A stretch of 64,000 nucleotides of DNA, taken from contig CM059444.1 in NCBI GenBank assembly GCA_030390025.1, positions 35,712,001 to 35,776,000 of the forward strand, in the 5' to 3' direction. Below the pieces are notes generated by a model. The model searched no databases. It was not told where the DNA came from and saw nothing but the letters and a program-made list of their open reading frames with translations. Of the stretch, positions 1-24,529 are shown piece by piece (within the stretch, counting starts at the first letter, position 1; every line of letters starts with the position of its first letter). Both the position numbers and the translations under genes were made by a program. This stretch comes from Squalus acanthias. Its lineage: Eukaryota.

Positions 1-625
1 CACATGATTAATAAACTGATTTAGGAGCAGGTTCACTTAAAACCAACCTTGACCAATCAACATCTCTTCAACCAATAATTACAATGCATCGAAGCAAACC
101 CAAACAAAACTTTGAATGAGCAAAGGTTTGAAAATAATTTCCTACCAGGTCAGACAGGAAGTGTCAAAAACATCATAGCAATGGAAGCTGTGAAGAAATC
201 TGTTCAGCCATTCAGGATTCTTCAAATTTACAGCAAAAGCATGTCCAGAATTGATTAAAATTAATGTTCAACTGGGTCATGCAGACATTTGTCAAGAAAT
301 GCAATAGACACATGCAATTTTAAATACTGATTGCATAATGGTTTTCAATTAAGTTCCAGGACAATGATTAGAGATAAATCTGGAAGGGCTACAAAATAAA
401 TGCAATTTTGATTTAAAAAATCCTTTATACAAGATTATTAAAACAAGGCCAGGTTAGTGTGACATGGAAACTAAAACACTACGTGAAGCATTAGGCCTAG
501 CAAGTTCGACTTTGGTGCTTAGTAAAAGTGTAAAAGCAGACAGGACCAGCGGAATGGTTCCCTGTGCGCAACATACACCCGCCACCTTTCTTGCCTTGCT
601 GAGATGATCAAGCTCAAATTCAAAC

Positions 626-718
626 CTGTCTCACTGTCATCGTTCTTGGCCTCGCCTTTAAAGAAGTCTGTAATCGTTTTCAAAGGACTGCGCCATGGTT
701 GGGGCTGTGCCTCACCAA
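626..718 (-). CDS. FLNB: FLNB alternative 93-nt cassette exon (31 aa, VGEAQPQPWRSPLKTITDFFKGEAKNDDSET) inserted in Ig repeat 13
   Basis: Acceptor tttctgttctAG, donor G|GTTTGA, phase 1-1, open frame. Resembles the 31-aa insert of the long human FLNB isoform (..WRSPLKALSEFFKG..). Confidence 0.85.
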
Positions 719-1062
719 CTAGAACAGAAAACCTTTTACTTGCAGCAAAAATCTGAATGTCGTCACTGAAAAGGTGACAAGTGATTCCCTTATAACAGCA
801 CAGCCTTTCCTAGCTGTACAATGGCCCAAAATCATTAGGACAATATTCAATTTATAAGCTCCACTCCCAGTGAAGTTAGAAGAGGCCAAGTACTTAGCAC
901 ACAAAACATTAGTACGACTGACTTGCCATTCAATCTTTAAATTTAGACCAGGACTCCACATCCTCCCACCCTCCAAAGTGTGCATTCATGTGTAGACCTG
1001 TATCTAGTGACCTGGTATGTTGGTTAATAGTTACCTAAAACTGCCCAATGCTATGATCTTAC

Positions 1063-1230
1063 CTTTTGGTCCCAACACAGTTACTTGGAGAGGAGCTTTT
1101 CCAGCATTGCTGCAGTCCACAGTGAAGTGCTGCGGAACTTTGGCTCGTACTCCTGAACTCAGCCCAGGTCCACTACACTTGACTTTGCTTGGGTCCACAA
1201 CATCTTTGACTGGTACCTTAAATGGACTGC
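1063..1230 (-). CDS. FLNB: FLNB exon 25 (168 nt; [16 protein letters not shown]...VLGPK)
   Basis: cAG acceptor, GTAAGA donor, filamin repeat sequence. Confidence 0.95.
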
Positions 1231-1976
1231 CTGCAAGAAAGAAAATTGGATACTTCAGCGTTTTGAACATTGTAAGTGGTTATCTTATTCGGTGTGGGGT
1301 GATGGCGGTGCAGGGATTTCAGTTTTCAAGTAAAAGAAAAAAAGTTTAAATGGACAATGCAAAGATGAGCACATTTGACCCAAGGTGGTTCAGTATCCAC
1401 AAATCTAAATATTGCTTTGTTAAATTACTGTATAAATGCTTGAAATGCATCCCAATCTACTGGTCACATATTGGAAGCCTAATGGTTCCTATAAATCAGT
1501 ACCATTTAAAAAGTTTAGAAAAAAGTTTTACAATAGTAAAACATAATTGAAACAGTTTAAGATCTGAATCCAATTGGAGAACTAACATTGAAGCAGAAAG
1601 CATTAATTCAGTAGAAATGATACAAGCAGAATTTCTTAAATGAATTACATCAGTTTTGGTATAATCTATTATGCAGACAGCAGATACAAAATTTGTTTTA
1701 ATTTATGTGCGCTGATATTAACATGCCCCCATTTGAAAATCTTGAAATAATGATTTAGAAAAGGGAGATACTAACATGGCAATTGAGCATCTTGGGAACA
1801 TAACTGCACACCAGTTCAACAGTAGTTTTCTTCCATGATGGGAGCTTTGAAATCATCTAATTATTGAAAATGATCTAGCTATTGTCCCAGATTCAATACA
1901 CATGTAATCCTTAGCTCTGATTTACAATATATTTAAAGCAGTAGTTTAATAGATTGAATAGATTCAAAGATTTTAC

Positions 1977-2137
1977 CAGATATGTGCTGTCCTCCATAGG
2001 TAATATTCAAATCATAATCTCCAGGAGTATATGGGATGTATTCAACACTACAGCTTCCATCTTTGTTATCCTTGCAAGACATCTTTGCTTCTGAAGGTCC
2101 TTCAACAGTAATCCCAAGGCCACCAGTACCTGCCCCT
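1977..2137 (-). CDS. FLNB: FLNB exon 24 (161 nt; [21 protein letters not shown]...YGGQHIS)
   Basis: Translated by hand; AG/GT boundaries; phase consistent with neighbours. Confidence 0.95.
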
Positions 2138-2748
2138 CTGCATCACAAGGTTTTCAGTTACTAGTCTTAATTATCCCATCAAAGCTACAATAAACAATCT
2201 AATTTATTAAAATAATTTGTGTTTTTACTGGTATGCAAAAGACATTACAACTCATGCACATAGGCGAATGAGTTTTCAATGTTGTGCCATTATTCAAATC
2301 ATCTACAATAAACTGTTCTATGGCAGTGGTGCAGTCTTCAGACTCAGTTCTATAATTGTGTCAATTGGCAAATGATAAATACAATGATCGGTAGTAGGGT
2401 TCAGGTCTAAATCCAAAGCAGTAAGCTATAAAATGTCCAAATGAATGTTTAAACAAATACCTTCAGTTGTGCCAGTGTGGGTCACAAACACTGACCTCTA
2501 CCCTGGTAAATATTAGAAACCTGTGAAGAATAACTATAGATTCGCTATAACCTATGCATGCTGTTTTATCTCCTGGCAGTCAAGCGGCACTGGTTATGGA
2601 TCCAAACATTTAATTTAGCAGGAATGAGGGTAGCTAGGATATATGTTACGATAAAGGAACGTAGTGGCGGTGAAGAAATGCATCCAGTCTGAATCTAATC
2701 CCCAACCTGGCTTCTGAATCCAATGCCAATTAAGAAATTTAAGATTAC

Positions 2749-2911
2749 CTTGTTAATACAGAGAATTTATTAGCTTTATTGGTCAAGCCCTCTTGAAGTC
2801 CAGGTCCACTTGCAGAGACACGTGAAGGGTCACATCCTTCGATGACTCCTACCTTGAATGGGCTGTTTAGAACTGGTGCATCGTCATAGGTTACATCAAC
2901 TGAGTGCACAC
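2749..2911 (-). CDS. FLNB: FLNB exon 23 (163 nt; GVHSVDVTYDD...FSVLTR)
   Basis: ORF track 2745..2939; AG/GT boundaries. Confidence 0.95.
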
Positions 2912-3500
2912 CTGCACAAAACAAAAACATTTCCACCAACAGAGGTTAAAACCTTATCTTGTTCAAATACCAGGACTAGGAAGTAGTCAGTTTCACATCT
3001 ATTTTCTACATTTGTAGGATTCTTTGCGGTGATGTAAAATTGAAATGCTAAAGACAGATTATTCAAAATGGAACACTTCTCTGCTGTGGCTACTGCCAAA
3101 GTAGTTATTCTTTGACCTTATTGGTGTACTTATTCATGTGCTGGGCTAAAGATAAACTAGATTCAATGATTGCTAGCAATGATGAATTTACAATCTGAAA
3201 ATGGAAATCAGTGGGTCTCTGGTCAGAATTCTCAAAGCAGCAGCTTTTACTACAATGGTGGCCTGGGATATAGGCTTTTGTCTAAACTAATCTAGTTTAT
3301 CCAAGAATTAAAAAAAAAGTTAAATACTTATAATCCACCAATTCTGTGTCAATGGTAATGCTGAACCTCCAAGTTCTTTAGCCAAAAAAAGCAGAAAAAT
3401 TGTGAAAGACAACTACAGGTGCTTCAAAAGGAATGAGGCTCAAATCATTTGTATAATTAATTGCACCTTTCTCACAAAAACAAGTGACCTTCCATCATAC

Positions 3501-3674
3501 CCTTTTCAAATGGGGTGTACTCCACCGCATAAGTCCCATTGCCATTATCCTTAATCAGACAATCTGTGCGAGCTCCTGAAGGATTTACGATGCCCGTTTT
3601 GATGTGGTTTCCTCCCACCTTGGTCAACAAACCTGCATCCACTGTAAAGTCAGTTGTGGCATCACAGAAAACTC
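3501..3674 (-). CDS. FLNB: FLNB exon 22 (174 nt; GVFCDATTDFTVDAG...EYTPFEK)
   Basis: Translated by hand; poly-T tract then tAG acceptor, GTATG donor. Confidence 0.95.
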
Positions 3675-4669
3675 CTACACAAAAAAAAAAGCAATGCAGT
3701 CAGAAGAAAGAACCTAACCAAACTAAATTTGAGCATTATGGTCCTGACTGCTCATTAGGCAGTCAAAGCTGCCCAACATGATAGATTTTCCTGGTCCATA
3801 ACATCATTTCTGGCTTGTGCCAAATTAACTGATCTCAAATGGGGCAATGTTGGAACATTAAAACCACCTACAGTTTCCTTGGACTTAAGGTGGATTGAGG
3901 CTCCCATCCTTGATCGTGCAGTAACTTCTGCTAGAATGCATACAAGTACCCCAGAGTCCAAGAGGGTCAGCTGTAATGGCTCTACATGGGCTGCCAATGC
4001 TTAATATCTGGACCAACTCATTAGGGATGGCTGCTTTGGTAAGGTACTGGAGGACTGCCAGCACCCATGGAGCTGGCATGTGTTTGCCTTCAGGAGAAAA
4101 ACCTCAAAAGAGGAAGTTTGTTCTCAAATAATCATGGAGTTCTAGATTTTAAAGTGCATCACCTAAATATTTTGCCATGAGTGACAGTTCTAGCACAAGG
4201 CAAGCCAGAAAATGCCCCATTATACTCAAGTTTTACTCATTGCCATTAGATGGATGCCTCATACCATGATTACTAAATTAGAGTCCCATTAGCAGATCAA
4301 CAGAAAATATAAAAAAGGGAATTTTTACAAAGCTAGAATAGATAAATCAAAAATCAGTTAGTGCTTATACAGGAGATTGGAAGGAAAAATTAAGAGGCAA
4401 AAAGTCAGGGTCCCACTCCTGATGTCTGTGAAACAGTCACATGTTCACAAGTGCATTTTCTAGCAGTCCTTTTTCCAATGGACAAAGCCTACAAATGTTC
4501 ATTATCTAGGTTCACATGAATAGCCACTTAGGCAAGGTTCCAGACGGAACTATATTTCGATACAAGGTGCCGATCGAGGGAGAGAAACAAATTGGGGATA
4601 GAAAGGAAAGACAATATAGTTTTAAAAACTTTTAGATCACAACTAACAATAAGATTGTGTACACATGCT

Positions 4670-4703
<34 letters not shown>

Positions 4704-4782
4704 AGCAGTGGGAAATATCACAAAATAGAAAAACCATTTGCTACAAGACCACATAACAGCCAATGGTGGAAAAAGCACTTAC

Positions 4783-5380
4783 CATGTCCTTCGATTCCAG
4801 GTCCGTATACTTTAACACCACTAGTATCAACGGCTGGGTCCACCTGCAACCGTGCTGGGAATTTGGGCACAGACTGTCCTCCATACTTCAGTGCAATTGT
4901 GTGGGGACCATGCTGAAGTGGAATGTAGCTAACTGTGTGAGTGCCATCACCATTATCCTGAATATGGGCTTCGGCCTGAACACCTGTATCAGATACCGGT
5001 TCGATGGTCAATTCACCAGGACCAGCTTTTGAACAGTCAACAGTAAATAGTCCAGCTTCTCCAACTTTGCCACGTTCCAAGCCAGGACCAGAGGCAATAA
5101 CTTTGGAAGGATCAAAGGGCAATTTGACGTCTGCCTTGAATGGAGAACCTGGAATGTGAACTTCTTCAAACAAAATATTGACAAGATATTCACCAGGTTC
5201 ATTTGGTAAGTAAGAGACTGAACAGGTGCCATCCCCATTATCTGAGCACTCAATCTTGGCTTCACATGGGCCTTCCACAGTGAGACCCAGCCCACCAGTG
5301 CCAGCTCCTTTGGTGTCAATGGTGAATTCAGCAGATTTGCCCACAAGACCACTTTTGAGGCCTGGCCCATATGCTTTCAC
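4783..5380 (-). CDS. FLNB: FLNB exon 21 (598 nt; [11 protein letters not shown]...GPGIEGH)
   Basis: ORF track 4718..5386; cAG acceptor, GTAAGT donor. Confidence 0.97.
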
Positions 5381-5848
5381 CTGCAAATAAAAAAATTAAT
5401 GGAATATAATTGTTCATGGCCAACAAGCTATAATACTCAACAATTTAAGACAAGTTGCCCTGTTAAAGGGTATCTCATTGTGTTAAACAAACCCAGAGAG
5501 TCTTAAACTGGCTGATTTAGCACAGACTGAGGAAGAACTAAGCTGGGACCTCAACATCAGACCAAGGGATTGATTTAAAAAAAAATTAAAATCACTCTCC
5601 AGTGACCCTACACATGTGTGGTCAGGATCAGCCTTTGTTACAATGCCTGCACTGTAAATCAACACTCAAGGTTCAGATGAAAACCTTCCACAGAAACAAG
5701 GTACCGGAGGGACACAGCTGCTGTTTAACTATCCTGCAGAAGTCAGAAGAAATCTGGATGCAGACACTTCAAATAGGATTTCTTTACCCCAATAGAAGGC
5801 TCAAATCTTGATAGAAGAGAAACTATTTACTTAGCAAAAGTAAACTTA

Positions 5849-6229
5849 TAACAAGTTGTATTTATAGTGCCTTTAATGTAGTAAAACATCCCAAGGTGCT
5901 TCACGGGAGCATTATCAAACAAAATTTGACACCAAGCCATGAGATTAGGGCAAAAGTGTCTTGGAGGAGAGAAGGAGAGAAGTAGAGGTTTAGGGAGGGA
6001 ATTCCAGAGCTGAGGCAGCTGAAGGCATCGGCATCAATGGTGGGATGCTCAAGAGGTCAGAATTGACAAAGTGCAGCAATCTCAGGGGGGTTGTAGGGCT
6101 GGAGGAAATTAGAGCTAGGGAGGGGAGAGGCCATGGAGAAATTTGGAAACAAGGATGAGAATTATTATTTTTTTTTTTATTAAATGTTGCTGAACTTGGA
6201 GCCAATGTAAGTCAGCAAGCACAAGGGTG
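5849..6229 (-). mobile_element. L2-clade LINE 3' end fragment
   Basis: Tail reading ..aaaggcactataaatacaacttgt; same family recurs near 31260, 47440, 53962 and 62865. Confidence 0.7.
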
Positions 6230-6549
6230 TTGAATAGCTAAAATAACTAATGTTCATTTGTACCAGGATAGCTCCATCACAAACTGACATTTATCTTCTA
6301 TATTCCCCAAAATGAGAGCATTTATTGGTGTCACACAAGTTTTTATTGGAAACTCAGTGAAAGCTAAAAATAAACTTAATTGCATTGAATTACCACTTTC
6401 TACTTCCAGTGCTGTGCAAAAATGACGACATTGACTCTTGAGCCTTCCTCAGTTTCTAAGCTTTCTGATTTCTATACCAAGGAAACTAGAAGTGTAAAGG
6501 TGCAAAGCAAAAATAAATCTAGAAGTGTTTACAAAAAATGTTAATTAAC

Positions 6550-6811
6550 CTTGGAAGGATCTGGAGGCAGTGCAGCTTCCAGAGTGAATGGGCTGCCTAC
6601 AACTGGATTCCCATCATACATCACATCAACCATGTACAGTCCTTCTTCCTTTGGGATGTACTTGGCAACACAAACATCTTTACTAGTAACTGGCTCCACT
6701 ACACAGGGCACAGGTTTCCGTGAAGGGCTGGAGATCTTCACATCCACTTTACCTTGACCCCCAGCTCCCTTTGTGTTTATGGTGAACTGCTGATCTTTCC
6801 AACTTCTACTC
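6550..6811 (-). CDS. FLNB: FLNB exon 20 (262 nt as assembled, 263 needed for frame; 1-nt deletion near 6795-6800)
   Basis: Acceptor tttttAG, donor GTTAAT. RVEVGK and DQQFTINTKGAGGQGKVDVKISSPSRK...PPDPSK are in different frames. Confidence 0.9.
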
Positions 6812-8176
6812 CTAAAAATGGAAAGAACATTTATTTTTAATAGTAATGCAAACAGACAGGTAGGAACAAGTGTGTCTTGGACATTTATCTTTATACAATA
6901 GAGTTCTCATCACCATCTAACAGTTCCTCAGTATGAGAAAAAATACCAATATTCATCTGCCCCCTCACAATTGATGTAGTCTCTCTTCTGCCTCCTCTTC
7001 CCCACACAATTGATAAAATTAATATTGCATTTATCTCTAAATTGACATTATTGGCAATGTTTGGTTCACTTGGTTTTCCCTACAGAAACTAATAAGGTAG
7101 GATTAAACTAGGTTAGTGAAAGAACTGTTGAACGATAAGCAAAATGTATTACAAAACATCTGACTTTTGGTCAGCCTCCAACATCCTGAAAATGTATCAG
7201 GTCAATACCTTCCATGCAGTGCACAATTATCCTTTAACAGAATTCAGACAAGACAATGAAGAACTGTTGTGCCCAAGAACAAGCAGAAATCCAAAATGTA
7301 GCCACCAAAACTGGTTGATCATTTGCCACCATAAAGATGTACTGTCAATTTTAAAAAATCTGATTATATACTGTCAATTTAAAAAAGATATATAGGGAAG
7401 GGATTCTGATTTACTGTATGGTTCAAGTTTTAATCAAAGTGAAATTAAAGCACACTGAAAAAGACAAACTAACAGAAGTAAGAGAATGAAAAGAATCTTG
7501 ACTAGTAGAAAAGTGTAAATATTAAGAACTAAAATGTAGGAAAAAAGCAATGCCAAGCAGTTCAAATAAGAAAAAGTTACAAGGAAGCTGGTGATGAGAA
7601 AAAAAAAAAAACTGAAGACCTAGGGGGGAACCAAACTAATTATACATAGTGGTACTTCAAATTATGAATAATTACAATGTTGAATTATGCTGTAGTCACC
7701 TGTGTGTTGTAATATTCTATTGTGCACTATAGTATCTTGCTTTAATTACATATCTGTGCACTCAGATTCCCAGCAAGTGTCAAGTGGTATCGCAAGCAAT
7801 TTTAATAGGTGTCAAGTTTATGTTGGACAACTCAGCAGGTTAGATATGTTAGCCCATCCTCTGCCAGCAAGGGGAGCAAGAAAAATTGTAGGCAAATATG
7901 CAAGTCTTTAATCAGCATTTACTTTTTAAAACCATGATTACATATACACTAGATTTACACATCAGAAAATCTACTGGGGTCAAAATTTTCAATTCTGTAG
8001 GCACCTGGACTAGAAGTGCAATTTTATTCCACACATTATACATGCAGGAGCATTTAGCACTGAAGCTGAACCTGCAACTTACTGTTCCATAGTCAAGTTT
8101 AAATCAAAGCCAACTGGACTACAAATGCAAATACATTTCATTAGAAACATCTCAAATCAGTGAAAGGTGTACATAC

Positions 8177-8294
8177 TGTTTTCAAGACCGTTCACCACGA
8201 TCTTGTTCATGTCAAGTGGGTACGCTACTTCTATGCTGAAGGGGCTCTTAGGAACTGGATCCCCACCATAAGTCACAGCAATTCCCATGTGACC
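8177..8294 (-). CDS. FLNB: FLNB exon 19 (118 nt; [19 protein letters not shown]...NGLEN)
   Basis: Translated by hand; cAG / GTATGT. Confidence 0.95.
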
Positions 8295-8430
8295 CTGCAA
8301 ACACACACACAATTAGAACAGCACTTAGCACAGCAGGTCTCAGCAGTTCTGCCCAAATAGACAGCTCATTAATTCTTACATGGAAACAAGAAATGTTGCT
8401 AAAGTACAATAGGTGAATAGCAGCACCCAC

Positions 8431-8600
8431 CTGCTGTAGTGGTGTATACTTGACTGTCTGAGAGTAGTCATAATTGTCAATTATTTCAAAGTCACCGACG
8501 GCATCTCCTTTTGCAGGCCCACTAAAACGTGCATTAAGTGGGGCCTTCCCAGCACCCTTCGTAAACACAGTGAAATGGGTTGGCTTCCCAAGTTCTACAC
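8431..8600 (-). CDS. FLNB: FLNB exon 18 (170 nt; [10 protein letters not shown]...YTPLQQ)
   Basis: ORF track 8248..8631; cAG / GTGGGT. Confidence 0.95.
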
Positions 8601-10367
8601 CTGCCCATTGAAACAAGAACATGTTACTCATCAGATGCTGAACTTAAATTGCGTAACGGTATGCACTTATGGCAGAGGACAACTGCTGGGGGGAGGCCCC
8701 AAGCACTCGAGGTACGAGAGATGTGTGGTGTAAATACCCCATCCTCTAGCAAACTGCCTTAAATACAACTTCAAAATATTCCACTGAATGGGCACGTTAC
8801 CATTCTTTGTACCACTGATCAATACTTCCTCCCACAGAGATTGCTCACTTTAAAGGTTTGTGCTTCAATCTAGGACCTTGAACAGCCAGAGACTGCCAAT
8901 GAATATGGACATGGAAATAAGTGAGCCTTGCCAGCAAGAGTTGGCAGCACTGCCCCCAGCCCAAAACCATCCAAGATAGCTTGCCATTTGAGCATGTTGC
9001 AAATAGATTTTAAACAATTGCCTGTAAAAGAGAAACGGAGGAACAAACATTTTATTGGATAACTGCTTCAACTAAAAAAGGACAAGTTATTTGCCATTGG
9101 ATGTTACTTTTTACAGTATGGGCATTGCATGTAGGTTCTCGCCATTTTCTTAGGATCAAGAACAGTATAAAACACAGCTTGGTAAAGTTAAAATACCAAT
9201 TTAACAAACATCTGCTTAGCTGCAAGTACATTGATTATTCACAGTTGCTTCCTGCAGAGATCTTGGAATGAATTTTGAGGCTTGCTCAAGTAGTAGGCAT
9301 TACATAAAAGGATTATACTCTCCAAAAATGTACCAGGCAAACCAAAAACAGACAGTCTTTTGCCACAAAAACTATATAGTGGTAGAAAAAAAAAGGAAAG
9401 TCGCCATGGGGGGGGGGGAGGAGGAGAAAGGAGAAAGAGAAACAGCATTCAGACATAAGGAAACCACATGGGTTCAAGATTTTTCAGATTCATCATCATA
9501 TTACATTACTCAATGACACGAAGACATATGGAGCTACCCATTTTGCACAATCAAAATGCCTTACCATAATTATTTTATATACACGGAATCATATTTGTGG
9601 TAGTCACAATACTCAACTTTGCTTCACACTACAGAACCACCCTTAGTCCCAAGCACTTAAATCTGGTTGCCTAATTTTTAAAACTACACCTAGTAACCTA
9701 GTGAATATTGAATGTGTGTACAATATTCCTTAACGGTCATTGTTGAAGTTGAGGAAAGACTGCTGTAGAACCAAGAATGGTTCTGTAGTGGTACCTGAAT
9801 CTTTTGTTCTTAGTGGACCTGATTTTCTCTCATGTGGACATGCATTAGATACTGTGGATGTCAATTCTTTTCTAGGACTACAAAAAGTGAGTAGGGAGAT
9901 GTAATTGACAATAAATGAGGCGAGAAAAATACTTAAGCAAGCACAGATCAGGCAACTGATTAAAGGTTTCTTGCATAAGCAAAGAATATTCACAGGTTGA
10001 GTCATTGCCTAGTTGATCTTACACATAACTGGATCCAAGCAATGATTCACAAGAGTCCCGTGAATGAAAGCATAAAATACCCTCCTCCTGTACCCTGCCT
10101 GAATCCAATATATTGTACTGTACATTTACTTAGCTGCTTTGGAGAGCTTGATGCAACTTGACACCAACACTGCATACTGTTCAAGTTGCATGAAGAATAT
10201 TGTAGCACTTGTTAATACCAGGAAAGTGACCCAACTTACATTTTAGCATCATTTGGCCATCAGCAGTACAGTGCAAGGTGCAAAACACATAAGATAGTAG
10301 GTGAATTTAATGAGAAACTGACCCATGAATCCCATCATGGGGTTAGTGAATGGATGTTGACTCTTAC

Positions 10368-10458
10368 CTGTTTTATGTAATCCTGGGCCATCAGCTTTAA
10401 CTTTGCTGGCATCATGAGATGGATCCACTTTAACTCTGAAAGAGCCGATAGGAATTTC
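10368..10458 (-). CDS. FLNB: FLNB exon 17 (91 nt; [19 protein letters not shown]...LHKT)
   Basis: ORF track 10249..10509; cAG / GTAAGA. Confidence 0.95.
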
Positions 10459-10539
10459 CTGTTGAAAGGAGGGAAGTTTAGCTGGTTGCACAACAAGCTG
10501 GAAGAACAAAGCTGTAGAGTTGAGTCACAGGATACAAAC

Positions 10540-10700
10540 CTGACCAGCAAACAGCACTTTGATGGTATAACGTCCAGCTGCTGGTGGTGTATATTTCACC
10601 GTGAAGGTATCATTAGGATTAGTAATTATGTCAAATTCAATGTCCTCCTCAGAGTCGCTGATTACACGAGCATCACACTTTATGCCAACACTGACATCAC
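10540..10700 (-). CDS. FLNB: FLNB exon 16 (161 nt; [13 protein letters not shown]...LFAGQ)
   Basis: ORF track 10525..10752; cAG / GTTTGT. Confidence 0.95.
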
Positions 10701-10789
10701 CTGAAAACAGTGATAGGAAAAAGTCAGGATTGTTCCCAGTGATAAAAGCCAATCTCTAAACCTGGTTAGACCGACTAGTGGAGAATTAA

Positions 10790-11277
10790 AATGACCGGTT
10801 CCGCTCCATTCCCACTCTGACCTCTGCCTCTTGCACTGTTCCAATGAAGCTCAACCTAAGCTCATGGACCAGCACCTCATCTTTCGATTAAGCACTTTAC
10901 AGCCTTCTGGACCCAAGATTGAATTCAACAATTTCAGATCATAACCTCCGCCCCCATTTCCGCCCCCCCCCCGGATGGCAGCTCTTGATACTGCTATTCC
11001 CATTTACACCTCTTCTAGGCATCATTTGTTTCTTTACTTGTCCCATTACCGTCTCCTATAGCCTTGCATCATTATCCCTTTTGTTGCAATCTCTCCTGCC
11101 TTCCACCCGATCAGACCTTCCCTTTTGTTCTTTCCTCTCCTTCCCTCCCCCATTTCCCTGCATATGCTTAAAACTTGTTATATAACAAACTTTTTCCAGT
11201 TCTGATGAACATTAACTGTTTCTCTCCACAGATGCTGTCTGACCTGTTGAGCATGACCAGCATTTTCTGTTTTTATA
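10790..11277 (+). mobile_element. Penelope-like retroelement 3' fragment
   Basis: Degenerate GIY-YIG C-terminus (QHLIFRLSTLQPSGPKIEFNNFRS*), pyrimidine-rich tract, and the ctgatgaa...ctctccacagatgctg..tgacctg motif typical of shark Penelope pseudo-LTRs. Confidence 0.7.
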
Positions 11278-11425
11278 GTCAACAAGCTATTTGATCACCT
11301 TGGCAGCAAGCAGAACTCAAAACTTAATCGGACATCTATGCGAGATCCACGTTAAAACCACTGGATAACAATTAGGTGCAAGAATCCGATCTGATTTTCC
11401 CCTCAACATGGGGAAATTGAAACTA

Positions 11426-11777
11426 CAGGAAACTCTATTAACCGGCACCCAAATATCCAGAAATCTCTCTTAACAGCAAAATTCTTGAGTAGGTAACCGG
11501 GGTTTTCCTTCATCTCTCGTCTAAAATTAACTAAAAAAACCGAGGCGTTTGCCTTGTATCGGAGCGTGTAGATTGGGAGGGGAATGTGCAGCCCAGGTAG
11601 GCAGCGGACACGACAGATGGTCAGCTGGCGGTCCCCGGGGAGATGGAGCTCTGAATGCAGGCGCATCTCAATGTGTACGGGGCTCTCGTACGTTGGGAGA
11701 TATAACTCTCCGTTATCCAGACTTTGATTAACCGGCACCACGCCGGTCCAGTCGGTGCCGGTTAAAAGAGTTTCCTG
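11426..11777. mobile_element. Non-autonomous Tc1/mariner-pogo(Tigger)-type DNA transposon (MITE)
   Basis: TIR CAGGAAACTCTWTTAACCGGCACC at both ends, flanked by TA on each side. Confidence 0.85.
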
Positions 11778-12364
11778 TAATTGTAATGCTTCCTACAGCC
11801 CTGGCTGAGAACAGCAGACTAGGGATGAAACCTGGGATCTTCCTAGTCTGTATAGCTCAGTTAAGATTGGATAAAACTCAGAGCTTCAAGTGCTGGTGTA
11901 CACAATGCTGAAAGTTGATTGGGTATTCTTGGAACTATGGCAGGAATATCTTTAGATAAATCAAGCTTCACTTTATAAAGCAATTCCTTTCCAAATCATT
12001 AGTTCATCCTCCAGGGACCGTTTAATCTGGCATCCTGTCCAATAATTATTCTTAAGATCAGCTAAATTTCAATGATAATCCTGCTCAGCAAAGTGATAAA
12101 ATCTTAAAAAGCTAAAGGCTCAGAAGTTTACGGCACAGGGGGCAGCCATCAGCCCATCATGTCTGTACCAGCCAAAAAAACTATCCCACTTTTTTTTTTA
12201 AGTCACCACTACTATCCTGGGTTGTTCAGAGGAGAGCAAGTGCAGGAGCAAGAAATACAGTTAGTCAGTCCTAGAGTATGACCATAACTAGAAAAGCAGC
12301 ACTCCAGAAATGGTCATGGACAAGAAGTTAAAAGCACATTTGATTTTCCAGACTTTTCCCTTAC

Positions 12365-12488
12365 CTTCCCCAGCTTCTGTGCAATCCACAGTAAAGTGAG
12401 TGGGCTCATTAGCTTTCAAACCAGTTCTTTCAACACCAGGACCAAACACCTTCACCTTTTGTGGATGACTCCCCTGACCAATATTGAT
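12365..12488 (-). CDS. FLNB: FLNB exon 15 (124 nt; [18 protein letters not shown]...CTEAGE)
   Basis: Translated by hand; tAG / GTAAG. Confidence 0.95.
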
Positions 12489-13098
12489 CTAAAAACACAA
12501 GTCAGTTTAGAAAAAGAAACTAAGCAGTCAGTTTAAACATGCCTGCGCTTCATAGCTCAGTAGATAAATATGCACGTGGTAGTGAACTGTACAAGAGTCA
12601 CAACTAATCTCAAAAGGGGCCATAATCCAGTTCCTAAAAATCTCTAGTAAAGAATGTGCTTCCAACCTCATTTCAAATTTAATTTGGGAATTTCCCCACA
12701 AGTAGCAGAGAGTTCAGCTTGTGCAAAGAAATGATGCGCAACACAACTTTCAGGTGCTCTATAACCTGCCCCCCCACTCCACTAAGAATTTTACTTATGG
12801 AGTCATTCAAAAAGACAGCCATGACATTCACGTCTTGAAGCCATATTTGACAAGTTAAAGAATGAGAGGCATGATGTCTTGGCAAGTTTTAGCATCAACA
12901 TCTGCATGAGGGAAAGATCTAGCAGGAAAAATAACTTATAATTAGCTACTGAATGGGAAATTTTTAAGTTATATTATGTTTTGCAAAGCAACACAGTCAG
13001 ACATTAGGAAACAAGCCGTGGACAAGATCAACAGCTCCCTACTACATGCAAGATTAATGGAATGAGACACATGCAGTGAAAGGTAATTCATCACTTAC

Positions 13099-13242
13099 TC
13101 TAAATGGGCTGTTGGAGACATTCACTCCTCCCCAAGCAACTGCAACAGTGTGTTTGATTGGCTTGGTAGGAGTGTAGGAACAGGCTGTTATTCCATCACC
13201 TTTACTCTTTACTTGAACATGGATAGGAATACCCTCTGAATC
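13099..13242 (-). CDS. FLNB: FLNB exon 14 (144 nt; [17 protein letters not shown]...SNSPFR)
   Basis: Translated by hand; tAG / GTAAGT. Confidence 0.95.
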
Positions 13243-13939
13243 CTATAGAGTGCAGATACAAAGTCACAAATAGAAAAGCTTCTCCATAATAAAGACCTAC
13301 TTGTTCAATGTCAAAAATCCAGTGGTAATAGTATCTTTGTCTGGCTTGCTTTTAATGCAAGATTGGGCATTTCCATTATTTTGTGATTTCTCAACAATTT
13401 TACCTTCATGTGCTGAAGTTTCCTCCTGTAACTTTGACCACAGCTATATAATTGCTGACAATACTGCAAATCTAAATATACAAACTTGTCTAAACCAAAA
13501 TGGGACTCCTAGTTCTCAAAGAGGCAACATTCATGGAAATCAGGGGGATCAAGATTTTTCTTCAACTTTACAAACCGAATTTCTGATTATAAGCCATCTG
13601 AAAGGATTTTCCCATAAAATGAAATTCTGAAATCAAGTTACTGGCATGTACAGATGAACACAGGCGTTATTAATTCACAGTACTACTGCAGCCCCTAAAC
13701 TACAGTCTGGGGCCCATTTCTATTCTGGTGCCAACACAGCGCTATAACCCAAGGGTTATTCACACTGATTATCGCAATAACTTCTCACTACTGCCCCCTG
13801 TCAATTCTCAATGGCCAGCATTTTTCCCAACCTGCATTTGTATCGTTCATGCATTAGACTTCTAGAAGGATAGTTGGGTGGTGGAGCCAATTCCAACATC
13901 TTCAAAATAGTGAAAACATGCAGAATTGGTTCCTCTTAC

Positions 13940-14053
13940 TTGTGCATATATTTTCAGTGGTGCCTTCCCAGCATCCTTAGCATCAACTGTGAATTCAGCT
14001 GGTTGATGAACAATGCAGCCAGTTTTCTCCAAGCCAGGACCATAGGCTTTAAC
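13940..14053 (-). CDS. FLNB: FLNB exon 13 (114 nt; [13 protein letters not shown]...LKIYAQ)
   Basis: ORF track 13862..14086; cAG / GTAAGA. Confidence 0.95.
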
Positions 14054-15299
14054 CTGGGAGAAAAAAAAAAACAACAAAAATGACACTCATCGTTCACAAG
14101 AGCACTCCAGTATTCCAACCATAGTTTCACAACTTTGTAGGCACACAGCTGCTGTTCAAAATACCCACATAAATCGAATGAAATCTTTTCAGGATTAATC
14201 ATTAATTTATGCAAGAAATGTCAACTTGAGTCTTAGTTTCCTGTGATCTTTAAGCTTGTAAACACCCAACCACTTCAGGTGACTTTGCTTTCTAACTTTT
14301 TGATCTTGGTGGTGTATGGCAGTATGCACCTTGAACATTGTAAGATATAGCTTAGAAAACACATACATGCTTATTTAAATATTTTACGTGTTGGATCTCC
14401 CACAAGAGCCAGACAAATGGGCTGCGAACAAGATGAGGAAGTCCTTGATGAGATATAGCAAGTCATCAACCTCCCACAATAGCTAGACTAACAATAGGAT
14501 AAGACAAGATATAAAACAGTACAAGTCCTGCATGGAAATGTAGAGAAAGAGTCCTGAAGTCAACATTCCTCCCAGTGGAAACAAGCAATATCGTGTTTGT
14601 TGCATTAAAATCACTAACTTGAAGTACTAGGCCATTCTTGAGCGCAAGAATTGTGTTTTGCTAGTGAATCAGCTCGTTAACACTGTTCTTTTAAATCTAT
14701 TAATAAATATATCTGCTACACATCATATTGGTTCAGTCTTTGGAATCTTACAAGCACCTTGGTTTATCAACTTAGAAAGAAAACATCCCATTTTTTATAA
14801 TCAAGAATGGTACTTGGTTTTACCCATTATGGTATTTGTTTAACAATGTATTTATCTCTGGCATCTAAAATCTAGATAGACTACAAAAGAAGCTTTCAGT
14901 ATCTCCTTCTGGCATAAGTGGATTCCAGAGGGTGCATCACAGAGTGGTGGGGCACAACTTCAATGTCCTACCTTCCTGCAGCACCAACCGCCCCCCCCCC
15001 CCGACCCCAACCCAACCCTCCAGTCATCAAAATTCTCCATTCATCAGACAATAGTCAGGCTGTGACCCCAGACTAGCTACTTGAAGCCATCTAAGAATGC
15101 TCACATTATTGACCAGTGGTCTGGACACAGGATAACTGTCCCTTCCTGCTTGGGCACATTATTCAAGGGATAGGCAAGGAGGTGTTTTGGGGTGTCAGGA
15201 AACAAGGTCACTCAAGAACCTCATTAAATATTTGTGAACTCAGACAAACAGATCAGCAATTTTTTGAAATTCACAATGCATAGTATTCATTACTCTTAC

Positions 15300-15493
15300 C
15301 TTATCTGGATGAAAGGAACTTGATGCAGGCTGGATGGTGGCCATAAAAGGACTATCCACAATGTCCTCATCATCACACAAAACATGTACTGCATATTCAC
15401 CAGGTTCCGTAGGCCAGTAGCGTACATTACAGGAGCCATCACTCTGGTCATCACATTCAATCTTAGCTTGAGAGGGGCCCTCTACTGCAAAAC
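15300..15493 (-). CDS. FLNB: FLNB exon 12 (194 nt; [14 protein letters not shown]...FHPDK)
   Basis: ORF track 15240..15506; tAG / GTAAGA. Confidence 0.95.
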
Positions 15494-15614
15494 CTAAGAC
15501 AGACATTTACATTAATCTTCCAACCTTCATAGATTGGAAATTCAATAAAGCAAATAATCTCGTGAACCAGTGTTACTTGTTGCATATTTTGGATTATCCA
15601 AGGAGAAAATGAGA

Positions 15615-16010
15615 GTTTAGAAGAGTGAGGTGATCTCATTGAAACATAGGATTCTGAGGGGGAAGGACAGGGTAGATGCCGAGAGGTTGTTTCCCCTGGC
15701 TGGAGAGTCTTGAACTAGGGGGCATCGTCTCAGGATAAGGAGTCAGCCATTTAAGACTGAGATGAGGAGGAATTTCTTCAGAGGGTTGTGAATCTTTGGA
15801 ATTCTCTATCCCAAAGGGCTGTGGATGCAGAGTTGTTGAGTATATTCAAGGCGGAGATATAAATTTTTGGACTCTAGGAGAAATCAAGGGATATGTGGAT
15901 CAGGCGGTAAAGTGGATTTGAGGTTGAAGATCAGCCATGATCTTACTGAATGGCGGAGCAGGCTCAAAGGGCTGCATGGCCTACTCCTGCTCCTAATTAT
16001 GTTCTTCTGT
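15615..16010 (+). mobile_element. CR1-clade (HER1-like) LINE 3' fragment
   Basis: End of ORF2 (gagatgaggaggaatttcttca, tggaattctct) and 3' tail ggcctactcctgctcct shared with 27409-28372. Confidence 0.85.
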
Positions 16011-16480
16011 ACAAATTAACATTTTCTTGCATATGGCAAAGAACACCACATTTGGCCCACCTGCAATAGGATGAGCTTTTCATTTTAGTAACTGGCTCAC
16101 TGAAGCAAGGTTTTATTTTTCTATTTCATTCAACTTTGATATTCCAGTTTTAACAAGCCAAAGCCAAATAAATGTCACTTTCACTTTTTAATTGAAGTTG
16201 TATCATCACAGCACAATGTTGGAGTGCCTTGTAAAGCCAATTTGATGTGGCAAATCTATTTGCCAAAACAAAGTTTGTGGTAAAAGTGCAACATCTGGCA
16301 CAAAGCAACATTATGTAGGGGAGTTTCTGGAGCAGGTTAATGCAGAACTCCTCCTGCCCATCAACTCCCCAGCACAGTGTAAGAGGGGAAAATCTTCATT
16401 TGAGTCTCCCCAACTAACCTGAACTAAATTGTACTTTAAAGATTACATTATTGCTGCACTTATAATCTACTTGTAAACCC

Positions 16481-17284
16481 TGTTGTAATGTGCCCTGGGT
16501 AGAAGCAGTTAGATTTTAAATGTAGGCGTTGTGCCTCCCTTGACTAAGATTAAAAAAAGCGAAAAACAAGCGAAAACAGACAGCTTGTCTGTGGGAACAC
16601 ACAACTGGCAAGGTCATATGTGGCTGCCACTGTGTGGACTGTTAGGATATCTGCAGGGAATTAAAAACATCTTTACCTATGGCGACATGTTCCATTTGTG
16701 TTGCCATAACTACCCTAGATATGAGTCTTGGTCAAAAACAGATGATGTCAGGGTGTCTGGAGATGAGGACCAGACACAGGCAGGCAGGATCATTAGGTTC
16801 GTGCCATCCCTGTAATTGGACAGGGGGAGTTTCAGGTGCAAGTCAATGATTGGTCCCCATAGGCTAGGCTTTGCTGGGAAGTATAAGAAGGGGTCTCTCG
16901 AACACTTAGGTTGTAGGGGTATTCAGCAAGAAGCTTGGGAACATCCAACAGACGAGCGAGGAGGGTTTCTGGTTGGCCGAGGACCCACGAGTCACACTGA
17001 GCAGACGAACAAGCCTAGAGGCCAGGTCCAACAAAGGGGGGGGGCTGTTGTTCACACCGGGCAGACCAGGGGTTGGCCCGTGGAGATCACGTCTTCTACC
17101 CAGGGCTCAACGGTAATATAAACCTTGATTGCGCCAAGTTTAACTACTGCTCTGATGCTGTAATGTATCAAGTCTCACTTTCACTAAATAAAATAGAATT
17201 ACTGTCACCAACACGGGTTAAGTCGAATCTTGCAGAACTTAGGAGTGAAAGGGTTAATTGGCACACCGACCTAGAAACTCAACA
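16481..17284 (+). mobile_element. Possible solo LTR
   Basis: TGTTG...CAACA termini, TATA-like TATAAG near 16882, AATAAA near 17187, GC content above flanks; no clear target-site duplication. Confidence 0.35.
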
Positions 17285-17367
17285 GGGACACCACTGCAGT
17301 GTCCAAAATACTTAATGGTTGTTGCAATGTTTAATGTAGAACAATTTTGCAAAACAAACAACCTTAC

Positions 17368-17504
17368 CTAACACACCAACATCTGTTCCAATGGTTTCTA
17401 CTACAAAGTCTGCAGACTTGCCAACAAGCCCTCCATCAAGGCCTGGTCCCCAGGCTCTGATCTTTTGAGGACCTGCTTCAGGTCCAATCTGAATTTCAAA
17501 AGGA
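17368..17504 (-). CDS. FLNB: FLNB exon 11 (137 nt; [22 protein letters not shown]...TDVGVL)
   Basis: Translated by hand; tAG / GTAAGG. Confidence 0.95.
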
Positions 17505-17771
17505 CTAAATGGAAGAGAACAAGTTTCAGTCTGTTGAAGCTGAAGTAACCATCACAAAATTCTAGTCATTTGGACTAAGTGTCTGCAAGCCGAAGGGTCT
17601 AGATTTTCACTTTCTTGCGCTACATTTAACACTACACAAAGTTAAGAATTCTTGTAATGCCAAGGTTTAAAGTGTAGATCCTGTGGACACATTATCCAAC
17701 ACCGCAGGGAATTGAAAAACCACTTTCATAGGAATTGTTTTACATTTAACCAGTAACAGTGGCTGAAGTTT

Positions 17772-18533
17772 TAATGGCCCAGAAATTGATCCGGCTGCGC
17801 GAGAGTACGCACAGTGTACACTCAGGCAGCCAGACTTCAATTGCCGGTTTTCAGCATGCACTGCGCATGCACTGAAAACCGGCAATTGATCTTTCGAAAA
17901 GGGGGCGGGGCCTGGGTGCACCGCGTGCGCGCTACAGGCTGCGCGCACGCAGTGCACTTCATCGCTTGCGCACGCAGGTAAGTATTGAAGAATCTGGAAA
18001 AGTAAAAAGCAGGCGCAGGAGACTCTTTTAACCAGGTAAGTACATAATTAAGTAGTATTTAGAATTTTTTTTTACAGGTAAATCTTTAGTAGCGACTTTA
18101 AAGACAGGTAAGTTTATTTTTATAACATTTTAAAAGATTTAAAATTTTTTCAAAAATTTATTTTTTTGTTTAAAAAGGTTAATTTATTTAATTACACTTA
18201 TTTTAATTATGTGATGGGTTTTTTTTTTAATTTAATGGAGGTTTAGCTCTTCTTTTGGGGGCTTGTTGTATTCCTAGTTTTCACAGCAGTTCAATGGCCG
18301 CTGTGAATTCTATGAATGAGAGCTTGGTGTGCTGCCATTGGCTGTAACTCAGTCACGTGATCCCACAGTACGCTCGAACTAACTTCGCACTGTGGGATCA
18401 CGATGCACTCGCAGCTGATGGCTGGAACATGAAGTTCCAGCGAGCTGGGACTGAAAAAGCCAACGCGCAGTGAGACATCGCGGGAAGGGCTTACCCTCGC
18501 ACGAACCCTCACACTGCAATTTCTGGGCCATTA
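17772..18533. mobile_element. Non-autonomous TIR DNA element with CpG-rich arms, AT-rich core and internal hairpins
   Basis: Perfect 17-bp terminal IR TAATGGCCCAGAAATTG / CAATTTCTGGGCCATTA; superfamily not assignable. Confidence 0.8.
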
Positions 18534-19187
18534 TTTCTACAGCTGTTCACACTTTGCTTCTGTTAGTTACACTAACTGGAAAAAGTCAGCTCTTCAAAAA
18601 GTCAGATACAATCATTTAAGAATGAATCAGGAACAGTCAGCATTTTTTTTGTTGCAAACAGTACATCTGTTACCCACCAAGGGAGAAGGTTTTTTTAAGA
18701 ATATGCGGCAGCTTTAGATTAATTTAGGGCTGAGGGAAGGGAAAGATCCAGGTGAAATATGTTCGATAGAATATGCAATAGTTTAAGCTGTAAGGATATG
18801 TACAAAGTTACAAACGGTGGGTGGGTGGACAATGTGAAGAGAGGCAATTTACTTTGTTTGAAGCCCTTGATAGAGCTTTTGGAAGTTTGCTCTTTTAAAT
18901 GTGTTTCATGCTAATCAAGAAATGGAGACTGTAAAATGGAGGGTGGAAAGAATGATCCAGTAGCAGACTGCACTCGCTAGTGCCACTGGACAAGAGAGCA
19001 GTATTTCAAGCTAAAATGGCACGGCTCTGAACGTAATCCCAACTTGGAGGAGTTACTTGAAGAAACAACTCAATCCTTTTTGAACTAGAAATAAAACTAG
19101 CAGCTTAGTTATTCTCCTTTAACATATTGGTCTCAGTTTTAAAGTCTGTGGAAACCATCCATCGAAACATAGGCTTTCTGCACTCAC

Positions 19188-19320
19188 CTCCTGGGAATGT
19201 TATGGCCACCCCATGTAATGGTAACAATGTGCTTCCCAGGCGTGACAGGATAGTACTCATAAGGAAAGGCATCCCTGCCATCCAGAAGGTCCCTTTGCTT
19301 CACTGGCTGCTCCAAGCCTT
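19188..19320 (-). CDS. FLNB: FLNB exon 10 (133 nt; [25 protein letters not shown]...HNIPR)
   Basis: Translated by hand; cAG / GTGAGT. Confidence 0.93.
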
Positions 19321-19572
19321 CTGTCGAGACAGATCAACAGAAGTAGTTCAGGCTATAAAAATACATTAGTTTGGCCTAACCAACATCATTACTTGTTTCA
19401 AGGCCCTCTTACCAGATGGCCACGAAGAAAAACAACCTTGCCTGTATATTTACCTTGGTTATTTCTCTTATTCTAGATGTCCACATGGGAATATTAAAAG
19501 ATCACTTCACAAATTACATCATTTAACAATAAAGATTGGTAATGTTTTGTTTTCCAGTCCTACATTTAACTA

Positions 19573-19997
19573 CAGGAAACTTTCGTATATCCGGCATCGA
19601 CGGGACCGGCGTGGTGCCGGTTTATCGAAAGTACCGGATAACAGAGAGTTATATCTACCGAGGCTATTTTTAACAAAGAGACTCCAAGCAGCACGGGAGA
19701 ATCTACTCATGCTACTGCAATGTTTCGGACTTGCGACAGCGCCAGGAGGCCGAGTAGTGGCACTTTTGAAAAGTACCCCTACTGACTAAATCGGCGTTCG
19801 CGGACTCAGACTCGGACTCGGGATCGGCAACATTGCCGGTTATTTGAGAGGATTTTTCGGAGCACTCGGCGTTCGCGGAGACTCGACTGCGACTCGGCAA
19901 CATTGCCGGTTATTTGAGAGGAGTTTTCGGAGGATGATTTTTGCCGGTTAAGCGAGAATTCCGGATATTTGGGTGCCGGATAAACGAAAGTTTCCTG
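19573..19997. mobile_element. Young pogo/Tigger-type MITE, copy 1
   Basis: TIR CAGGAAACTTTCGTWTATCCGGCA, TA flanks, near-identical to 56455-56877. Confidence 0.9.
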
Positions 19998-20813
19998 TAT
20001 ATGGTTGCCTGGCAGCACAATATCCAATAAAAAACCAGCAGCCTGCTATTTTATTGATAAAGAATAGCACATTTCACTTGATGCCCAAATGTTCTTTAAA
20101 AGGGCATGCACACTTAACCCACTTTCCAGAAAGCAAGACCACAAACATCAAGATGAATGGATTTGGTTTTATTTGCCAAATCCAAAGTGTTTGCTTATGA
20201 ATAAGCATCCTCTTTCAGTACATTTACAGAACATCCATGACATTGCAATTTTGAGATTTAGCAAAATATTTCATTAGGGTCCATTTGACAGTTATCACAT
20301 TCAAAAATGCAACAAAATCTAAATACAATTTATAATGACCATGTGACTATCACTAATGTGACATGAACAAGGAATTTCTTTAAAAAGCTTAACTTTAGAA
20401 TCCTAGCAATAGTCTGAATACTAGTCTTGACCACATTGAGCTTCTTTTTGCCCTTAACTGGCAGAATTTGGATACAGCACTAATCAAATACTGTACAATA
20501 CTACAAAATCCCCTGTACAGTCTGGGGAATATGGCAGAATCATGTAGACTTGGTGTAGAACAGTGACCCTTAAACTCAAGTGCTATTCCAAATTTATATA
20601 TATATTTTTTTTTTTAAAGTGGTAAGCAGCAAGAAGCCTAGACAGAGAGTAAACCTGAATCTTAAACTCAATTAATGGAATGCAAGTGAATTCTGCCAAC
20701 AGGTAATGCTTGTCCAGTTTGTGTTTTGGAGAGGGATGAGGAAAATTAGTTAATTGAGTCACTTACCTATTCTAGTAAAGCCTGAATACAAAAACCCTTT
20801 TGTCAAAACTTAC

Positions 20814-20951
20814 TTGGTCCCTTCACCAACACTTTCAGGTCACCACTTCCAGCCCCTTTAGTATCAACTTTGAAGTCAGCAACTTGACGAATTCTCAGTC
20901 CTTTAGGTTGTAGGCCTCGTCCAGTAGCACGACAAGCATTGGGGTTACAAG
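20814..20951 (-). CDS. FLNB: FLNB exon 9 (138 nt; [18 protein letters not shown]...LVKGP)
   Basis: Translated by hand; cAG / GTAAGT. Confidence 0.95.
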
Positions 20952-22028
20952 CTGGAACAGAAAAGTTGAAATTCATGTGTAGTCTGGTGACCAGTTTCTT
21001 TTTTTGGGGTTAGGTGTGGAACAAGGAGGGAGGAGATGAAAGTGAACACTATTAATGGAGATAAATGGCACCTGTGTCTTTACTGAAGATTGGGCACAGT
21101 ACATTTAGTAAAGCTAATAAAGTTAACATGATGCTTGATAGACAAGGGTTAAAAATAAAACCCAAAAAGCCTCATCTACATGTCACTACAAATACAAAGA
21201 TGTCTACCAACTCAAATAGATTTCCAATCAAGTTAGCATTATAGGGGATGCCAAAACACCATTAACTTTCATTCTAGCCAAATGTTTCCTAGGAAAAAGC
21301 TTGGATCCATTACAAACATGGAATTGGTCAATACCTTTGGTACTACAATGAATGAAACCTGGAAACCAAAGCAAAACTTCAAATATTTCAAACTATTTAT
21401 ATTGGAAATTTTACTGTGCATTACCAAATTAACCTGCTTGAAATGTAACCATAACTGTTTTTCCTGATATGTTCAGTAATTGTTTGCATACATTCCAGAT
21501 TAATAAAAACTGGACTTTCACTTCATAGCACTTTCCCTAAAATGCACAAGTGAAAATGAAACTGCAAACAGTTTCTCACTAGCCACCCAGTCAATGTTAC
21601 TACTTCAAAGAATTCAAAAATAAACAGTGGTTCAGAAACAAAACTTGGCCTCAAATAGGATTTTTGTAGGCAAAAGGAACTGCATTAAAAACTGTTTGAG
21701 TAGGTACAGAGGTGAATGAATTAAAAAAAAATATATTTCTTAATTGTTGACTTGTGGACCTAGATAAGCAGATCAAACTTCTGGAAATGGATATACATTG
21801 GATTGAATTCAAGATATTGTTTATCAACTATAAATATTCTCAAAACTACAATAAAAGTCTGTTATTTTTCATACTCTACTAAATCTACAGGATACAACAC
21901 TTATTGGCTGCAGTAGGACTTCAAGCTTATCGTTGAAGGCAAGATAACTTCATTTTCTTTCTTCTAAAGGAAACTTGCAATCTTGAGCATACAGGTTTTA
22001 AAGCCATCATGAATTTAAAAACCAGGAA

Positions 22029-22790
22029 GGGCTGAATTTTAATGGGGGAAGTCAGGTTGAGGGGGCTCCAAAGCAGTCAGGAAACCCAGGAGAACAGGTT
22101 TCCCGCAGACACTGCCAAATTTAAACGGCAGGGCCCTGATTTGCACAGGAAGCCAGTTTCCCACCCGCAGCCAGCCAGATTGAGGCACAGGCTGGCTCTG
22201 ACGGGTAGGCCTACAGCACCGAGGAGGGAGGGATAGTGTGGGGCTGGGGAGTGGCCAGAGGAGTATGGGGGGGGGGGGAAAGAGAGGGGGCGGTCAGCAA
22301 ATTCATTGTGGGCCAGGGAGTGGTCAGAGGAGTGTGGGGTGTGGAGTTGGCAAGTTCATCACAGGCTGGGGATGGCCAGAGAGGAGTGGGGGAATCCCAA
22401 GAGGACCAGTTGGAGGGAGGAGATTGGAGCCTAGTGTGGTTTGGTGGGGGGGGGGGGGGGGGGGGGGGGGTGTGGTCTCTGATCGCAGGGTGTGGGTTAG
22501 GCAGGGACCCTGGGTCTAGGAGGCAAGTATAAAAGCACTTACTTCCTGGGTCCAGCAGTCCGCAGGCCTGTGAAACCCAACCAGCTAAAGTTTGATACAA
22601 AATGGAGGTTAAAGCAGAGGCTTTCAGCCTCATTATATCTAAATAAACCACCCGCCTCCTGGCAGCAGATTGGCTGCCCCCCGTCCTGCCTCTGTTAAAA
22701 CCATAAGTGGGCAGGTTCAGGTCAGGATTCAGATTTACCACCAACTACCCACACACCCCAACCCAGCTTTTTTTTGGTTAAAACTCTCCC
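22029..22790. mobile_element. GC-rich non-autonomous DNA element with G-rich low-complexity interior
   Basis: Imperfect terminal IR gggctgaattttaa / ttaaaactctccc; sharp composition change against flanks. Confidence 0.55.
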
Positions 22791-22874
22791 TCCCCAGAAG
22801 TGTCTCCAACTCAGTTTACCTGGCCAAAAGATATTTATAGTAAAAAGAAAAAAAAGCAGACGTATGTTACCTAC

Positions 22875-23072
22875 CTTCACCTATATTGACAGAATACGGG
22901 CTCTTGGGTATTGGCGAGTCTGCAAACGAAATTCGGATTGTGTGGTGTCCTGCTTGCACAGGTCTGTAGCTGCACCGATAGTTATTGTTCCCCTTATCTT
23001 CAATCATTACTTCAGTGTTGTTGTTACCCTGAGGATCCACTATCACCACTGCAACAATACCTACCCCAGCAC
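22875..23072 (-). CDS. FLNB: FLNB exon 8 (198 nt; GAGVGIVAVVIVDPQG...SVNIGE)
   Basis: ORF track 22867..23049; tAG / GTAGGT. Confidence 0.95.
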
Positions 23073-24465: not shown

Positions 24466-24529
24466 CTGGCAGGAATGAAGAACATTAGAACCTCTGCAAT
24501 GTCTTTATCACATGAATACATTTCAGACA

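Follow-up and report, generated by a model that had tools for sequence, protein, structure and literature searches.

Does the filamin B (FLNB) gene of a cartilaginous fish carry a true cassette exon within its 13th Ig repeat, how widely is such an exon kept among vertebrates, and what might the encoded peptide do? Variants of filamin B, a mainly cytoskeletal protein, lead to skeletal dysplasias, and the switch-like splicing of its hinge exon is well known. The window analysed here is a stretch of 64,000 nucleotides from Squalus acanthias (contig CM059444.1, positions 35,712,001 to 35,776,000). A preliminary description of it, made from the letters of the sequence, proposed a hidden 93-nt FLNB exon at positions 626..718, apparently conserved from shark to human and encoding an amphipathic helix with a Ser-Pro kinase site. 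The exon, its splicing, its relatives in other filamins and its possible functions are considered below.

Host gene and exon structure

FLNB exons 2–25 were mapped to positions 1063..30049 of the minus strand (the upper end is approximate), and the numbering of exons 25 and 26 assumes that exon 1 lies upstream of the window. No FLNB exon 1 was found in the remaining 34 kb of the window (30050-64000), and intron 1 is therefore long. The spliced model of exons 3–45 without the cassette encodes 2367 residues with no stop. FastTree analysis with 21 reference filamins placed the gene as sister to all bony-vertebrate FLNB (support 1.0), and IQ-TREE analysis with 16 references returned the same grouping as a topology without support values. 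This place in the tree fits a cartilaginous fish, and the grouping, with FLNB and not with FLNA or FLNC, bears out the earlier identification of the host. Repeat-like frames are also present, for example near 19500-20050 and 56300-56930, which resemble each other. The hinge-1 exon of the same gene was modelled beyond the window at window-relative positions -10463..-10552 (L004-L002), with a length of about 90 nt, a weak donor and uncertain boundaries.

The cassette, exon 26, occupies positions 626..718 of the minus strand and comprises 93 nt, or 31 codons, in phase 1-1. It is preceded by exon 25 (1063..1230, minus strand, 168 nt), which encodes the opening half of Ig repeat 13, as far as strand C, and by a 344-nt intron (719..1062, minus strand) with canonical ends. 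Exon 27 (124 nt, minus strand) lies outside the window at G000:C20:35711105-35711228, 772 nt beyond its edge. With exon 25 and the cassette each ending in phase 1, their joined frame yields 31 stop-free residues, and the frame across exons 25 and 27 stays open both with and without the cassette; the other two frames of the cassette contain stops. When scored with a small matrix derived from the gene's own sites, the acceptor (...TTCTAG, 719..738, minus strand) falls at the median, below 21 of the 44 own-gene acceptors, and the donor (GTTTGA in CAG/GTTTGA, 620..625, minus strand) scores lower than 31 of 44 donors. The exon, its phase, its AG and GT sites and its distance from exon 25 are all as first described. 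Its absence from the track of open reading frames is uninformative because internal exons mostly lack a start codon. Within the genome the insert peptide matches only this exon and has no second copy, and the corresponding introns of the two other filamin genes contain no motif that matches it. An AG located after the F-F-K codons in the window lies where the shorter frog inserts suggest an alternative acceptor, and is used by no contig.

The intron reading just 3' of the exon (G-L-[NH]) and just 5' of it is alike in the window (600-625 and 719-745) and in the Logan read-throughs P0337-P0344, so that the surroundings of the splice sites seem to have been kept over a long distance. Five motif classes were tried in a scan for regulators. 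The intron downstream contains two RBFOX-type TGCATG hexamers (278..316, minus strand), at +310 and +343, and two such hexamers within 350 nt occur in 2 of the 44 other introns of the gene; the pair is a hint of a candidate control of inclusion. A QKI-type ACTAAC hexamer at +168 (453..458, minus strand) is a weak hint, being common (one in 12/44 other introns). RBFOX- or QKI-type factors may thus control inclusion of the cassette.

Inclusion and skipping in public contigs

Eight of 21 listed public runs were compared, in the form of contigs only. Their RNA status is a guess, none of the 21 being recorded as RNA and run X9 being flagged as probably DNA, and they carry no tissue labels; contig depth does not equal inclusion level. 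Despite the guessed RNA status, contigs cross canonical introns exactly, including the 344-nt intron before the cassette; run X19 is contiguous genomic DNA. Joints that include the exon were found in five of the eight runs (four organisms), and joints that skip it also in five. The joint between exon 25 and the cassette (1063 -> 718) is present in runs X3, X4 and X12, and that between the cassette and exon 27 (626 -> exon 27) in runs X1, X3, X4 and X9, so that both junctions named in the preliminary description have been seen. Skipping joints occur in runs X1–X4 (organisms A and B) and in X10, which has the skipped form only; X9, X10, X12 and X19 come from organisms C, D, E and H. In run X9 a loose contig end matches the end of exon 25. 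The exon is a true cassette, both included and skipped. One contig of run X1 (L001:1626-2092, window 625-1091) joins exon 27 to the cassette and keeps the 344-nt upstream intron, a form that would be either a retained intron or an intermediate of splicing.

The cassette differs from the window at 1 of 81 bases in X12 and 4 of 96 in X9, and the flanking exons at 28/278 and 27/292, respectively. The cassette is less diverged than its constitutive neighbours (p 0.009 in X12, 0.13 in X9, pooled p 0.002, the samples not being independent). Lower divergence than that of the flanks is usual in regulated exons.

Distribution of the insert among filamins

Of the 336 filamins examined, 256 allowed the repeat-13 junction to be placed; in the other 80 it was missed. 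Inserts of 27-31 aa were present at the junction in 24 of the 256, every one of them named FLNB. They belong to one gar model from UniRef and to 15 species of frog, represent 16 distinct sequences and, in 23 of 24 cases, measure 30-31 codons; a frog protein served as the query, which weights the sample towards frogs. Among the other located junctions, 222 had no insert and eight had one or two extra residues, one FLNA model carried an unrelated 20-mer, and one frog isoform retained the last 10 residues of the insert only. The insert of frog FLNB follows residue ~1464. At the same residue, the inserts of Lithobates FLNB X3 (P0126) and Engystomops X1 (P0284) measure just 10 and 27 residues. These shorter forms suggest the use of alternative acceptors inside the exon, and the 10-residue one lacks the core described below.

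A profile built from eight inserts and run against 1.84 billion representatives gave eight matches, all of them short Logan frames that hold the exon with its intron flanks. One of these records, P0338, matches the approximate human insert peptide of the preliminary description at 27 of 31 positions when compared by eye. None of the first 120 homologues carried the insert. A direct homologue search with the insert covered proteins of 71-2000 aa, which excludes full-length FLNB, and returned two candidates, none scored. No insert was found among the sturgeon, paddlefish, bichir and teleost isoforms examined, nor in three RefSeq gar isoforms, a result that reflects annotation. The only gar model with the insert has a degenerate core, and most ray-finned fishes have possibly lost the insert. 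Judged from the sequences, the exon is common to this fish, gar and frogs, orthologous and at the same insertion site. Deep conservation, as first proposed, is upheld as far as the same-site inserts of frogs and gar reach, but among the isoforms examined it is not universal.

Reports also exist on long forms of the human protein. Human FLNB cDNAs of 2591, 2633, 2578 and 2602 aa have been described against a 2602-aa reference, with the roles of the variants left unsolved in the portion of the paper available (PMC2650634). The 2633-aa cDNA, AB371580, was published in 2008 (PMC2650634, Table 2). It is longer by 31 aa, the same length as the 31 codons of the shark exon; the available text of PMC2650634 gives no human insertion site, whereas for the shark exon both the position and the two-way splicing have been seen. 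RefSeq isoforms of frog FLNB (among them XP_004914227.1 and XP_075430934.1) carry an insert of 30-31 aa with junction and core as in the shark. We take isoform O75369-8 to be the 2633-aa human form. This isoform is listed in a proteome (PMC13600778, seen in part). With the frog isoforms annotated and the human cDNA published, the exon cannot be called hidden; it is a genuine, ancient and already annotated cassette.

The conserved core of the insert

The centre of the insert is a 14-residue core, R-S-P-L-K-x-I-[ST]-[DEN]-F-F-K-G-[DE], encoded at positions 651..692 of the minus strand and followed two places later by a Lys in 23 of 25 sequences (window included). Identity to the window is 8-11/14 in the core against 2-8/16 at the flanking positions, a comparison that is partly circular, as the pattern used to place the core columns itself requires certain residues and the insert profile selected the Logan rows. 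Replacements in the core are mostly conservative (I/L, S/T, D/N/E, K/R and L/M); gar and two of the eight Logan records have a degenerate core. The core had been given at first as WRSPLKxxxxFFKG; its central part is indeed kept while the flanks drift, but the Trp is no part of it, being present in 9/25 inserts and in none of the 15 distinct frog inserts. A CDK-type S-P-x-K/R site is found in 22 of 25 inserts, which agrees with the proposed Ser-Pro kinase site except that both Xenopus species and gar lack Ser-Pro. Shuffling the insert produces a full CDK consensus in 6.5% of cases.

On a helical wheel, L, I, F and F share one face, with angles of 300, 240, 180 and 280 degrees. The hydrophobic moment of 0.67 is attained by 1.35% of 2000 shuffles, and the moment test was significant in two of five inserts (p 0.014 and 0.02; 0.08-0.25 in the others). 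The net charge is +1 for the core and -2 for the whole insert. The pattern [LM]-x-x-[ILM]-x-x-F-F is present in 22/25 inserts; it was chosen post hoc, is absent from the 2367 constitutive residues and appears in 0.03% of insert shuffles. Read as a PIP box, position 1 is never Gln (Leu in 22/25, Met in 3/25), T-D precedes F-F only in the window and gar, and the basic residue of a PIP degron at +4 is absent, that position being F, P, L, A or Q with Lys at +1 and +5. The insert gave no match in the PDB and no hit in the ESM Atlas, and the six-letter motif sought for the CDK-type site did not occur in the main texts of the literature searched. A Fip1 identity was rejected, the match lying below Pfam's cut-off (E 0.046). 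FFAT, LIR, NES and WH2 patterns, compared by eye, were also rejected for missing positions.

Predicted structure of repeat 13

Repeats 12-14 of the frog protein were modelled with the insert by AlphaFold2 on a 48-row alignment, with a mean pLDDT of 84. Residues 145-173 have pLDDT <50 and no secondary structure, and they are flanked by strands 135-141 and 176-184, which we read as C and D of the filamin fold (PMC3143143, consulted in part). The modelled domain overlays human FLNB repeat 13 (2dj4) with an rmsd of 0.9 Å, in agreement with the earlier assignment to the 13th Ig repeat, and the solved 2dj4 chain passes through the junction without an insert. The domain is thus predicted to fold as usual, with the insert as a disordered loop in the C-D hairpin. 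In this model, at low confidence, the insert did not dock onto repeats 12-14 and added no strand to a neighbour's CD face of the kind that would make it an intramolecular blocker as in repeats 18-21, the latter result being weak. The proposed amphipathic helix is borne out in the spacing of the residues but not in the free insert, where AlphaFold2 placed no helix; any helix would therefore form on binding.

Possible functions of the insert

The explanation that we favour, with moderate confidence, is a splice-switched, predicted disordered loop whose 14-residue core likely forms an amphipathic helix on a protein partner, with proline-directed phosphorylation as a likely means of tuning. Inclusion of the exon inserts 31 residues, predicted to be disordered, into the C-D hairpin at the surface of the 13th Ig repeat, the core would fold into a short amphipathic helix upon binding, and a proline-directed kinase may phosphorylate the Ser just before the helix and so tune the binding. 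In the part of the report consulted, FLNA is phosphorylated by Cdk1 and Cdk4 at S1436, S1459 and S1533 and by Cdk1 also at S1084 (PMC11346442); this part of rod 1 is therefore CDK-regulated in the paralog. By our reading, S1459 and S1533 lie in repeat 13. The Ser-Pro of repeat 13 in bear FLNA is missing in five FLNB sequences compared and also in coelacanth FLNA.

Other readings of the exon have to be set beside this one. Chance, in the form of an accidental open frame or cryptic splicing noise, might be suspected from a donor weaker than most, the skipped form in all of X1-X4 and the upstream intron retained in X1, but inclusion joints in four organisms and orthologous same-site inserts in frogs and gar both refute it, and it can practically be dismissed. 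Constraint could instead act on the RNA, through splicing elements in and around the exon, with the peptide as a tolerated passenger loop. The low divergence of the cassette in X12 and X9 (pooled from samples that are not independent), the likeness of the intron flanks in the window and the Logan read-throughs, and the degenerate core of gar and two Logan records are in keeping with such a constraint; yet over long distances residue class and helical spacing persist in the centre of the exon as its ends drift, and 23 of the 24 annotated inserts keep 30-31 codons, so that we regard it as decidedly unlikely. Short amphipathic helices often bind the hydrophobic cleft of actin or lipid bilayers, and the amphipathic core would then contact F-actin or a membrane and adjust the secondary actin-binding segment of rod 1. 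That segment has been placed in repeats 9-15, to judge from the available part of PMC7714767. A net charge of +1 for the core and -2 for the insert is poor for anionic actin or lipids, however, and the L-K-K-T tail of WH2-like motifs is not conserved after the Gly; contact with actin or membranes is unlikely, if worth keeping in mind.

The remaining reading takes the core as a PIP-box-like motif without Gln that would tether the long form of filamin B, whole or as a fragment, to PCNA or another PIP-type pocket, with CDK phosphorylation as the off switch. The canonical PIP box is Q-x-x-Psi-x-x-aromatic-aromatic, 34% of curated PCNA ligands have no Gln, and T-D strengthens binding, according to the part of PMC6881253 consulted. 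The insert resembles PIP boxes and PIP degrons in its aliphatic residue at position 4, its two aromatics at positions 7-8, its disordered setting and the T-D of the window, and the rarity of the post hoc pattern in shuffles and in the constitutive protein speaks for the likeness. It differs in having Leu or Met for Gln, no basic residue at +4, T-D outside the window only in gar, and a mainly cytoskeletal host. Moreover, a frequency of 1.1e-4 per site would mean roughly a thousand occurrences of the pattern per vertebrate proteome, and amphipathic helices of any kind are prone to match it. The insert is a candidate on sequence grounds, and the tethering appears very doubtful. There is likewise a slim chance that jawed vertebrates have kept a splice-switched, CDK-gated PIP-box-like helix on repeat 13 since before the split of cartilaginous and bony vertebrates and that most ray-finned fishes dropped it. 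In the same genome, PCNA_N has a second, weaker match at G000:C25:4895105-4895230 besides the main PCNA gene on C17.

Relation to known filamin systems

Like the FLNB hinge-1 exon (exon 30), which is controlled by QKI, RBFOX1 and RBPMS, the cassette is in frame and alters a flexible part of the protein. The tip of the C-D hairpin where the insert sits belongs to the face that the group A repeats (4, 9, 12, 17, 19, 21 and 23) use for their CD-face ligands; in contrast to these, repeat 13 is not a group A repeat, and the insert is a loop of helical pattern, neither a groove nor a beta-strand ligand. The FLNB hinge exon or other variants are the subject of PMC2199218 and, in the parts available, of PMC5112600, PMC13217883, PMC6613909, PMC11791029, PMC8759570 and bioRxiv 2024.10.05.616792. 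The FLNB rows concern the hinge exon only in the supplements of PMC6103745 (two splicing rows, in the part available), PMC6613909 (7/7 in the splicing file) and PMC13217883 (6/6); the same holds for 2 of the 6 FLNB rows of the PMC11791029 supplement, available in part, and the PMC8759570 supplement has no FLNB rows. The literature searched yielded no study of the cassette, functional or otherwise; a description of it may exist in supplements or subscription papers beyond that search.

Overall, the first reading stands as regards FLNB, repeat 13, the cassette and the contrast between core and flanks, and needs correction as regards the Trp, the extent of conservation, the hidden status and a helix in the free insert. 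The points that are new are the evidence of expression in this lineage, the refined core, and the PIP-like and CDK-like reading. As the exon was already annotated, the gain is a sharper question and not a new type of element. Two-way splicing in a lineage that is sister to the bony vertebrates, together with a 14-residue core bearing a kinase site, makes the insert a small and cheap target for pull-down. If the very doubtful PIP-like reading were true, the helix would tie an actin cross-linker to the cell cycle through PCNA or a PIP-type pocket.
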